Below, piece by piece: positions 25,814 to 26,522 of a stretch of DNA of 64,000 nt (positions within the stretch are counted from its first letter, which is position 1; each line of letters starts with the position of its first letter). The DNA lies in NCBI GenBank assembly GCA_951406725.2, contig OX597838.1, forward strand, positions 39,122,001 to 39,186,000, in the 5' to 3' direction. Source of the stretch: Octopus vulgaris (lineage: Eukaryota). The notes under the pieces are model-generated. The model worked only from the letters and a program-made list of their open reading frames with translations, had not been told where the DNA came from and did no database searches. The position numbers were made by a program, and so were the translations under genes.

Positions 25814-26522
25814 TACTAACAATATAGGATGAAGTCCCTTTCTCTACAGAAAAGGATTCCATCAAAAAGCGTGGCAGTATATTTAAAAAAACCTTTACGG
25901 TTGAAGTATAAACATCTTATAATTAAGGGCTAAAGAAGGTTATTCTAAAGCCAATACACTGATTTATCCACTTATAATCCACTTGTTACAGGATGATTGA
26001 ACTGAAAGCGGGCAACTAACCTTTAGAAAATTTAAATTTCGTTATCTCTATATTGAATCATTTTCGGAATTAATCCCTATAAAGGATACATTCTTCTTCA
26101 GTAGAGCTTACGAGGGAATATAAATAAAATACTCACATGTGATCATGGAAAAAGCAGAAGCTAAAAATACAACTACATTTAAGTACATCATTTATATCTA
26201 AAAATAAAAATTCCTTGGTCAGTCTCAGAACAACATGTTGACCTTTCGCCGCTACATATTGTAATGGTTACCGGTCCCCTTGTAACAAGCAGTGAGTTTA
26301 CTACTAACAATATAGGATGACGTCCCTTTCTCTACAGAAAAGGATTCCATCAAAAAGGGATTAATTCCGAAATTGATTCAATATAGAGATAACGAAATTT
26401 AAATTTTCTAAATGTTAGTTGCCCGCTTTCAGTTCAATTTTCCTGTAACAAGTGGATTATAAGTGGATAAATCAGTGTATTGGCTTTAGAATAACCTTCT
26501 TTAGCCCTTAATTATAAGATGT
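25814..26522 (-). mobile_element. Non-coding PLE-like / retrozyme-like element 2
   Basis: 56-bp direct repeats 25814-25869 and 26302-26357; inverted copy 26357-26522 of 25912-26077; (TA)n on both sides; hammerhead inside. Confidence 0.78.
26046..26106 (-). ncRNA. Type I hammerhead ribozyme motif
   Basis: CTCTA CTGAAGA AGAAT...ATTCC GAAA ATGATTCAA TA TAGAG: stem I CTCTA/TAGAG is perfect; the inverted copy reads TTGATTCAA in stem III. Confidence 0.72.

Follow-up and report, generated by a model that had tools for sequence, protein, structure and literature searches.

A probable non-autonomous Penelope-like retroelement with a 488-nt hammerhead-bearing unit in the genome of Octopus vulgaris

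What kind of element combines a 488-nt unit bearing a hammerhead motif, short direct repeats and an inverted partial copy of itself between pure (TA)n tracts, and by what route could it have been inserted? The question is raised by a locus (element 2) within 64,000 nt of Octopus vulgaris DNA (contig OX597838.1, positions 39,122,001 to 39,186,000; hereafter the window), which is microsatellite-rich, animal-type DNA. The locus very probably represents one insertion event, that of a Penelope-like retroelement (non-LTR retrozyme) which is short, non-coding and non-autonomous and has a unit of 488 nt; the family is new, and the class of element and its layout have already been published. The layout, the multicopy family, the tandem continuity of the unit and the selection on the minus-strand RNA fold were established directly for element 2. 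The features of the locus, in window coordinates, are the following.

25772..25815, no strand: (TA)22 target microsatellite, adjoining the 3' end of the element
25814..26357, minus strand: main copy of 1.11 units (488-nt unit plus 56 nt), non-coding, 33% GC
25814..25869, minus strand: 3'-terminal direct repeat, with a 15-bp interrupted hairpin
25814..25906, minus strand: tail of 93 nt, which the main copy has and the inverted copy lacks
26046..26106, minus strand: type I hammerhead of PLE (Penelope-like element) type, stem I of 5 bp, complete core
26302..26357, minus strand: 5'-truncated upstream unit (pseudo-LTR, pLTR; 56 nt), from the direct-repeat comparison
26356..26357, plus strand: microhomology of 2 nt (AG) where main and inverted copy meet
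26356..26527, plus strand: inverted 5'-truncated copy of 26078-25907, without tail
26524..26623, no strand: (TA)50 target microsatellite, at the distal end of the inverted copy

The first-pass annotation had described direct repeats of 56 nt at a distance of 488 nt, and these were found (25814-25869 and 26302-26357, with one difference), as was the embedding in pure (TA)n, with (TA)22 on one side and (TA)50 on the other. It had also described an inverted copy of ~165 bp starting inside hammerhead stem II; the start, in distal stem II/loop II (equivalent of 26078), stands, and the length is corrected to 172 nt, over which 26356-26527 and 25907-26078 show 5 differences. The inverted copy carries the 3' half of the ribozyme with stem III intact. 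The 3'-terminal direct repeat ends at a putative reverse-transcription start site A (about 25814-25816), and the tail spans the distance to A from a second putative start site, B (25907).

No ORF of more than 34 aa from ATG, or of more than 50 aa from stop to stop, was predicted in element 2, and the best tblastn match against 30 PLE-type proteins had an E-value of 0.09; element 2 is classed as non-autonomous because the reverse transcriptase (RT)/GIY-YIG ORF is absent. PLE insertions are described as comprising a partial tandem, an adjacent inverted 5'-truncated copy, a one-ended tail of 30-40 bp and a preference for (TA)n (PMC8557442). Element 2 has the pLTR-type partial tandem, the inverted 5'-truncated copy at its 5' end and the (TA)n target; it also has a one-ended extension, which at 93 nt is longer than the 30-40 bp tail described. 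EN+ PLEs (Neptune/Nematis, Penelope/Poseidon and Naiad; PMC8557442, PMC11167929) share with it these features and the position of a hammerhead upstream of the 3' end, whereas element 2 differs from them in the length of the tail and in the missing RT/GIY-YIG ORF; non-autonomous PLEs of Chlamys such as MRC1 likewise form pLTRs and head-to-tail copies (PMC8557442). The published signature of PLEs comprises, besides the partial tandem, the inverted 5'-truncated copy, the tail and the (TA)n target, a hammerhead that has an extra nucleotide, and we read the layout of element 2 as that of a PLE insertion.

Two PLE-type elements with coding sequence are found in the same window.

55481-58270, minus strand: 5'-truncated coding PLE, broken frame with in-frame stops, with YVDD, CX4CxxC and YVGET (GIY-YIG motif)
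59417-63003, no strand assigned: second PLE-like element, 542-aa frame with YRDD, no Pfam match, adjoining an N gap

The first of these, ~29 kb from element 2, has a CX4CxxC linker of the Neptune/Nematis type and matches Pfam RVT_1 and GIY-YIG at E-values of about 6e-4, below their cut-offs. It is truncated within the RT and has no tandem repeat, and it carries a 357-nt inverted copy at 97%, (TA)37/(TA)20 flanks, and a hammerhead-like motif with C at position 9, located ~122 nt from the 3' end of the element. The second has a 386-nt inverted repeat at 99%, with a hammerhead-like CUGAAAA motif in both repeats; the same core variant was seen at a loose end in one sequencing run (X6, see below). 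A neighbouring ORF has its best homologue in an Octopus bimaculoides protein (55% identity; one of 27 hits), and falls among RT/GIY-YIG-type clusters in an Atlas search. For an autonomous partner that shares the ends of element 2, no match was found in the two coding PLEs of the window, to which element 2, unlike an EN+ PLE, has no sequence link; the comparison of element 2 with these two, with element 1 (see below), with a palindrome at 24896 and with an inverted-repeat element at 44728 gave chance-level pieces of 10-21 nt only. Having no sequence in common with element 2, the coding PLE at 55481-58270 would, on sequence grounds, exemplify the class of mechanism and not be the partner of element 2.

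Other repeats in the window include the near-perfect 255-nt palindrome at 24896-25153, between (TA)n runs and 660 nt from element 2, which may represent two short PLE ends joined head to head, or a MITE. The element at 44728-46954 consists of nested inverted repeats (44728-44835/46849-46954 and 45930-46132/46523-46736) in microsatellites, without a match to the hammerhead descriptor. An inverted duplication of 801 nt with 99.6% identity, made of SINE-like repeats, is located at 31280-32995. A minus-strand LINE fragment at 4322-5489 and 3314-4195, with zf-RVT (E 1.8e-8) and a duplicated 3' stretch, lies beside (AGAT)n arrays; we take it to resemble a microsatellite-targeting Tx1 element.

The annotated minus-strand hammerhead with its perfect stem I (CUCUA/UAGAG) is present at 26106-26046. 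All core positions are represented (C3-A9, G12-A14, A15.1-U16.1, H17), with a core CUGAAGA...GAAA, the site AUA, and predicted cleavage between 26051 and 26050; an extra A (26094) follows A9, and a possible G10.1-C11.1 pair (26093/26066) is directly adjoined by a bulged C in a long, interrupted stem II. Stem III is near-palindromic; in the main copy it carries U15.2>A at 26061, and the inverted copy retains the pairing base. The descriptor derived for this hammerhead matched at no other site on either strand of the 64-kb window, and in 0 of 3000 random composition-matched sequences of 709 nt, with thresholds that were set after the motif had been seen. A search of Rfam gave no hammerhead for element 2, either at the gathering threshold (0 hits) or among the 2 hits at E<=10, and likewise none for element 1. 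Elsewhere in the window, a plus-strand CUGAUGA...GAAA motif at 40550-40604 shows a possible 9-bp stem I and no clear stem II.

The ribozyme resembles the minimal, palindromic-helix-III hammerheads of PLEs (PMC4209133) in its 5-bp helix I, long helix II, extra nucleotide between 9 and 10.1, G10.1-C11.1 pair and small palindromic helix III; it differs from them in the C bulged beside the first helix II pair, and as a prediction from sequence. PLE hammerheads cleave weakly, as dimers, and ribozyme pairs 100-700 bp apart on opposite strands were noted for them (PMC4209133). A strong fold is predicted for the main-copy RNA (z -3.9; as circle, z about -4.2). Stems I and II form with a probability of 0.99 in the monomer, linear or circular, and of 0.0 when the inverted arm is included; the predicted cost of forcing A15.1-U16.1 in the monomer is 6.5 kcal/mol. 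With one full ribozyme, the locus should be unable to release a monomer by two cuts, and since the inverted antisense arm would in addition block this ribozyme, the copy is probably inactive. The ribozyme most likely acts in dimeric form, in tandem transcripts from other copies of the family.

Such copies were found in sequencing runs: 20 of the 24 runs listed, from 10 studies and under four organism labels, contain the element 2 stretch or part of it. Four of the 24 (X1, X2, X6 and X13) were mapped on 25816-26523, and runs X20-X24, with little or none of the stretch, were left out. That the locus belongs to a multicopy family, and is not single-copy, was borne out by 696, 627, 83 and 260 contigs in these four runs, respectively. 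The 83 contigs of X6 cover 28 of 30 bins; none of the listed runs is recorded as RNA, X6 is an RNA run by guess only, and its contigs were counted neither for nor against expression. Summed depths in X1 and X2 are mostly in the thousands to hundreds of thousands, versus 30-60 for several long contigs, which suggests a family of hundreds of copies or more, depth being no copy number. The 3' half of the ribozyme (26368-26391) shows ~10x the depth of the rest (292,555 versus about 15,000-57,000 in X1) and loose ends into other sequences, and is therefore common to more abundant families. Scans for exact patterns gave no locus in either metagenome or viral contigs (0 in each).

The contigs, which are too short to hold two ribozymes and are the source of all flanks and junctions of other copies, also reveal how the unit continues. 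A joint from 26307 back to 25820, i.e. by 488 nt, occurs in X1 and X13 (2/4 runs) and represents head-to-tail continuity beyond the 56-nt repeat. Three further joints lead into an inverted arm, from main-copy positions 26172, 26327 and 25980 to inverted-copy starts equivalent to 26075, 25976 and 25986, respectively; each is represented by one contig with 27-29 letters on its short side. All four joints listed are consistent with the PLE insertion model. A loose end of other copies in X2 runs into ATG/TA repeats. The 56-nt repeat was considered as a fixed LTR or transcription start, a candidate weakened by the contigs that continue past it as tandem and by others that truncate at 26172, 26327 and 25980. 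A rule that the inverted copy starts in stem II was also rejected: two of four family joints do so (that of the window, and one X1 contig with a 27-letter side), which by rough reckoning is not beyond chance, and element 1 differs.

An assembly artefact, or a MITE-like DNA element, is hardly credible as an explanation. Inverted arms between microsatellites are hard to assemble, and among the 32 of 1679 pieces listed no contig spans the junction of the locus itself (26357) or the whole stretch; yet an artefact is at odds with copies that differ at 1/56 and 5/172 positions, with three elements of inverted-copy layout in the window, and with similar joints in contigs of 3/4 runs, and a MITE is at odds with an inverted repeat that is subterminal, not terminal.

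For the analysis of variation, 40 of 51 variant rows were listed, of which the 39 inside the monomer were used and one (26413, in the inverted arm) was dropped. That the family keeps the hammerhead core is supported by the absence of all 39 variants from the 13 core and 10 stem I positions; contigs over 26046-26078 may map to the inverted arm instead, which weakens this result for the 3' half of the ribozyme. Six of the variants lie inside the ribozyme, all in distal stem II or loop II. With respect to the minus-strand fold, 15 variants are unpaired, 16 keep the pair, five are compensable and three break it; pair-breaking variants (3/39) thus compare with 12.9 +/- 2.4 under the null, and 0 of 10000 shuffles were as low. 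Without three changes that are probably private to the element 2 copy, 4/36 break (0-2 of 5000 shuffles), and with no compensation allowed the test is weaker, with 7-8 breaks (reached by 43-90 of 5000 shuffles). On the plus-strand fold, 8 variants break a pair (68-327 of 5000 shuffles), and 11 do so if compensation is disallowed (577-1646 of 5000); as the functional RNA, the plus strand was rejected for its weaker fold (z -1.6) and this weaker variant signal. Three double changes (26076/26084, 26137/26178 and 26243/26273) have identical depths within X6, which suggests that they are carried by the same contigs. The variants of related copies are non-independent and indels were ignored, so that the set represents supporting, not formal, covariation; as such, the variants preserve the minus-strand RNA fold and support selection on it.

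Such selection is expected of any RNA-mobilised element, and does not single out a viroid-like circular RNA with RNA-to-RNA replication and occasional reverse transcription into the genome. This reading, which we consider very improbable, could draw on the strong fold (z about -4.2 as circle), on the pair-keeping variation, and on RNA-RNA replication having been raised as a possibility for mussel retrozymes (PMC7229834); it is opposed by the single ribozyme polarity (minus strand only), the GC content of 33%, and the abundance of the family in runs guessed to be DNA.

The same data bear on whether the 488-nt unit is the pLTR of an autonomous PLE, i.e. a 5'-truncated or internally deleted relic that was amplified locally as a DNA tandem and has no RNA life of its own. 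According to a preprint proposal, retrozymes derive from the termini of PLEs and undergo local amplification (Li et al., bioRxiv 10.64898/2026.07.22.740005), most PLE insertions are 5'-truncated (PMC8557442), and the deeply covered ribozyme 3' half with its loose ends is common to other families. A relic of this kind is nevertheless an unlikely account of element 2: beyond site A, the ribozyme recurs within 195 nt, with no ORF in between; tail, inversion and (TA)n flanks belong to the whole unit, and not just to an array; compensatory changes are found in the body upstream of the ribozyme (26137/26178 and 26243/26273); and only 0-2% of the DNA contigs continue into unlike sequence. An evolutionary origin of element 2 from a pLTR may be envisaged.

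Within the window, the layout of element 2 recurs in a further element.

18544-19461, no strand assigned: taken as element 1, 542-nt unit, 47-nt repeats, 347-nt inverted copy, 91-nt tail

Its 47-nt repeats are 542 nt apart, and its junction is CCT. The main-copy ribozyme has C3>U and the inverted copy retains CUGACGA; the helix III segment ACCGAGGU is near-palindromic, and the circular fold has a z of -4.6. The first-pass annotation had seen in elements 1 and 2 one layout without visible similarity. This is correct for the inverted-copy layout, which three elements of the window have in common, and for the lack of similarity (local score 22, mean of shuffled sequences 22.6, with 126 of 200 shuffles scoring at least that high); it does not extend to the surroundings, as element 1 is not in pure (TA)n, or to the position of the inverted copy, which in element 1 spans the whole ribozyme, so that the two layouts do not have a start in stem II in common. 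The shared mechanism that had been suggested for both is supported, and corresponds to PLE-type retrotransposition as already described.

A PLE protein was shown in vitro to cut both strands of AT-rich DNA and to extend them; two internal RNA start sites of the RT define the tail, and ribozyme cleavage is not required (PMC11167929). Modelled on this PLE biochemistry, which is the basis for the involvement of a PLE protein and for nicking, priming and cDNA joining, the insertion of element 2 could have proceeded as follows. The RT/GIY-YIG protein of an autonomous PLE would have bound the structured element 2 RNA and nicked both strands of a (TA)n tract, and two cDNAs would have been primed at fixed internal positions, A (about 25815) and B (25907), separated by 93 nt. 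Starting from A, the first would have run for 544 nt, i.e. for more than one unit, and the second, from B, for 172 nt, before the two were joined head to head via the 2-nt microhomology AG. The term for insertion from two priming events, in analogy to LINE-1, is twin priming. Because the site-A cDNA is longer than one unit, the template would have been a tandem transcript or a circle, and because both cDNAs cross the ribozyme cut site, it would have been uncleaved or religated there; between a circle and an uncleaved tandem transcript, DNA alone cannot distinguish.

For an element of the same class, the inverted arm could instead have arisen by fold-back, the 3' end of the long cDNA priming itself on its own strand with no second target priming. 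The 2-nt microhomology suits either route, a joint in X13, between 25980 and the equivalent of 25986, comes close to a hairpin, and the arms differ at just 5/172 positions. Fold-back does not account, though, for an inverted copy that ends short of the 3' end by 93 nt in element 2 and by 91 nt in the unrelated element 1, and in vitro both strands are extended by the PLE protein, with two start sites (PMC11167929); we regard it as rather unlikely, and prefer priming at two sites. The A-B distance of 93 nt in element 2 and 91 nt in element 1 has a corresponding offset of ~151 nt in the coding PLE. As a tentative extension, a circular hammerhead RNA might serve as the template for a dimer of Penelope RT, whose subunits would load at two fixed sites ~92 nt apart, one running round the circle past its own start and the other tending to stall at stem II; two of the four inversion joints start within 3 nt of each other at stem II. 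If so, the 488-nt RNA would be a minimal natural substrate on which to resolve both the formation of tandem and inverted PLE insertions and the function of the ribozyme. The ~490-nt circle implied by the first-pass annotation is plausible as a prediction.

For animal non-LTR retrozymes, expression as circular RNA is described from coral, mussel and axolotl, and mobilisation by PLEs has been proposed (Cervera and de la Pena 2020, PMC7229834); the 2026 preprint links Xenopus retrozymes to PLE pLTRs by phylogeny, and reports cleavage for 1/9 tested dimers (Li et al.). Element 2 resembles these retrozymes (PMC7229834; Li et al.) in having a self-paired, non-coding unit that is low in GC, measures a few hundred nt and contains one type I hammerhead, in the existence of tandem forms, in a ribozyme that folds freely in the predicted circle, in its multicopy nature and in the co-occurrence of PLEs; the 488 nt exceed the 170-400 nt given for invertebrates and are within the 51-972 bp of Li et al. 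It is unlike them in that its copy is a 1.11-mer with one full ribozyme, below the two-ribozyme criterion of Li et al. for an active element, in that its ribozyme is of PLE type and not canonical, in that its circle is only predicted, and in that it has a tail, an inverted copy and (TA)n flanks, none of which turned up as described in term searches of PMC7229834 and Li et al. The LTR retrozymes of plants have a type III hammerhead inside each long terminal repeat, whereas the ribozyme of element 2 is of type I and outside the 56-nt repeats.

A retrozyme-sized unit with the whole PLE insertion signature was not reported in the literature surveyed, and for octopus or cephalopods combined with hammerheads or retrozymes only PMC8557442 surfaced; the survey covered mostly freely accessible papers, and is weak evidence of absence. 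A repeat annotation of Octopus vulgaris gives 31 recently active Penelope-like families, its main text being silent on ribozymes (PMC13282606), and its repeat library may include the element 2 family.

The mobilisation of animal retrozymes by PLEs has so far been argued from co-occurrence, shared ribozymes and phylogeny, with the mechanism stated as open in the sources cited. A short non-coding unit that combines the full PLE insertion signature with fold-keeping variants adds structural evidence for mobilisation in trans. The unit would also be a small substrate for the existing in vitro PLE assay, in which the circle model could be tested, and copies of 1.x units such as this one are missed by Rfam and by tandem-based retrozyme pipelines. 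The value of element 2 is thus as evidence that short hammerhead RNAs borrow Penelope machinery to move.
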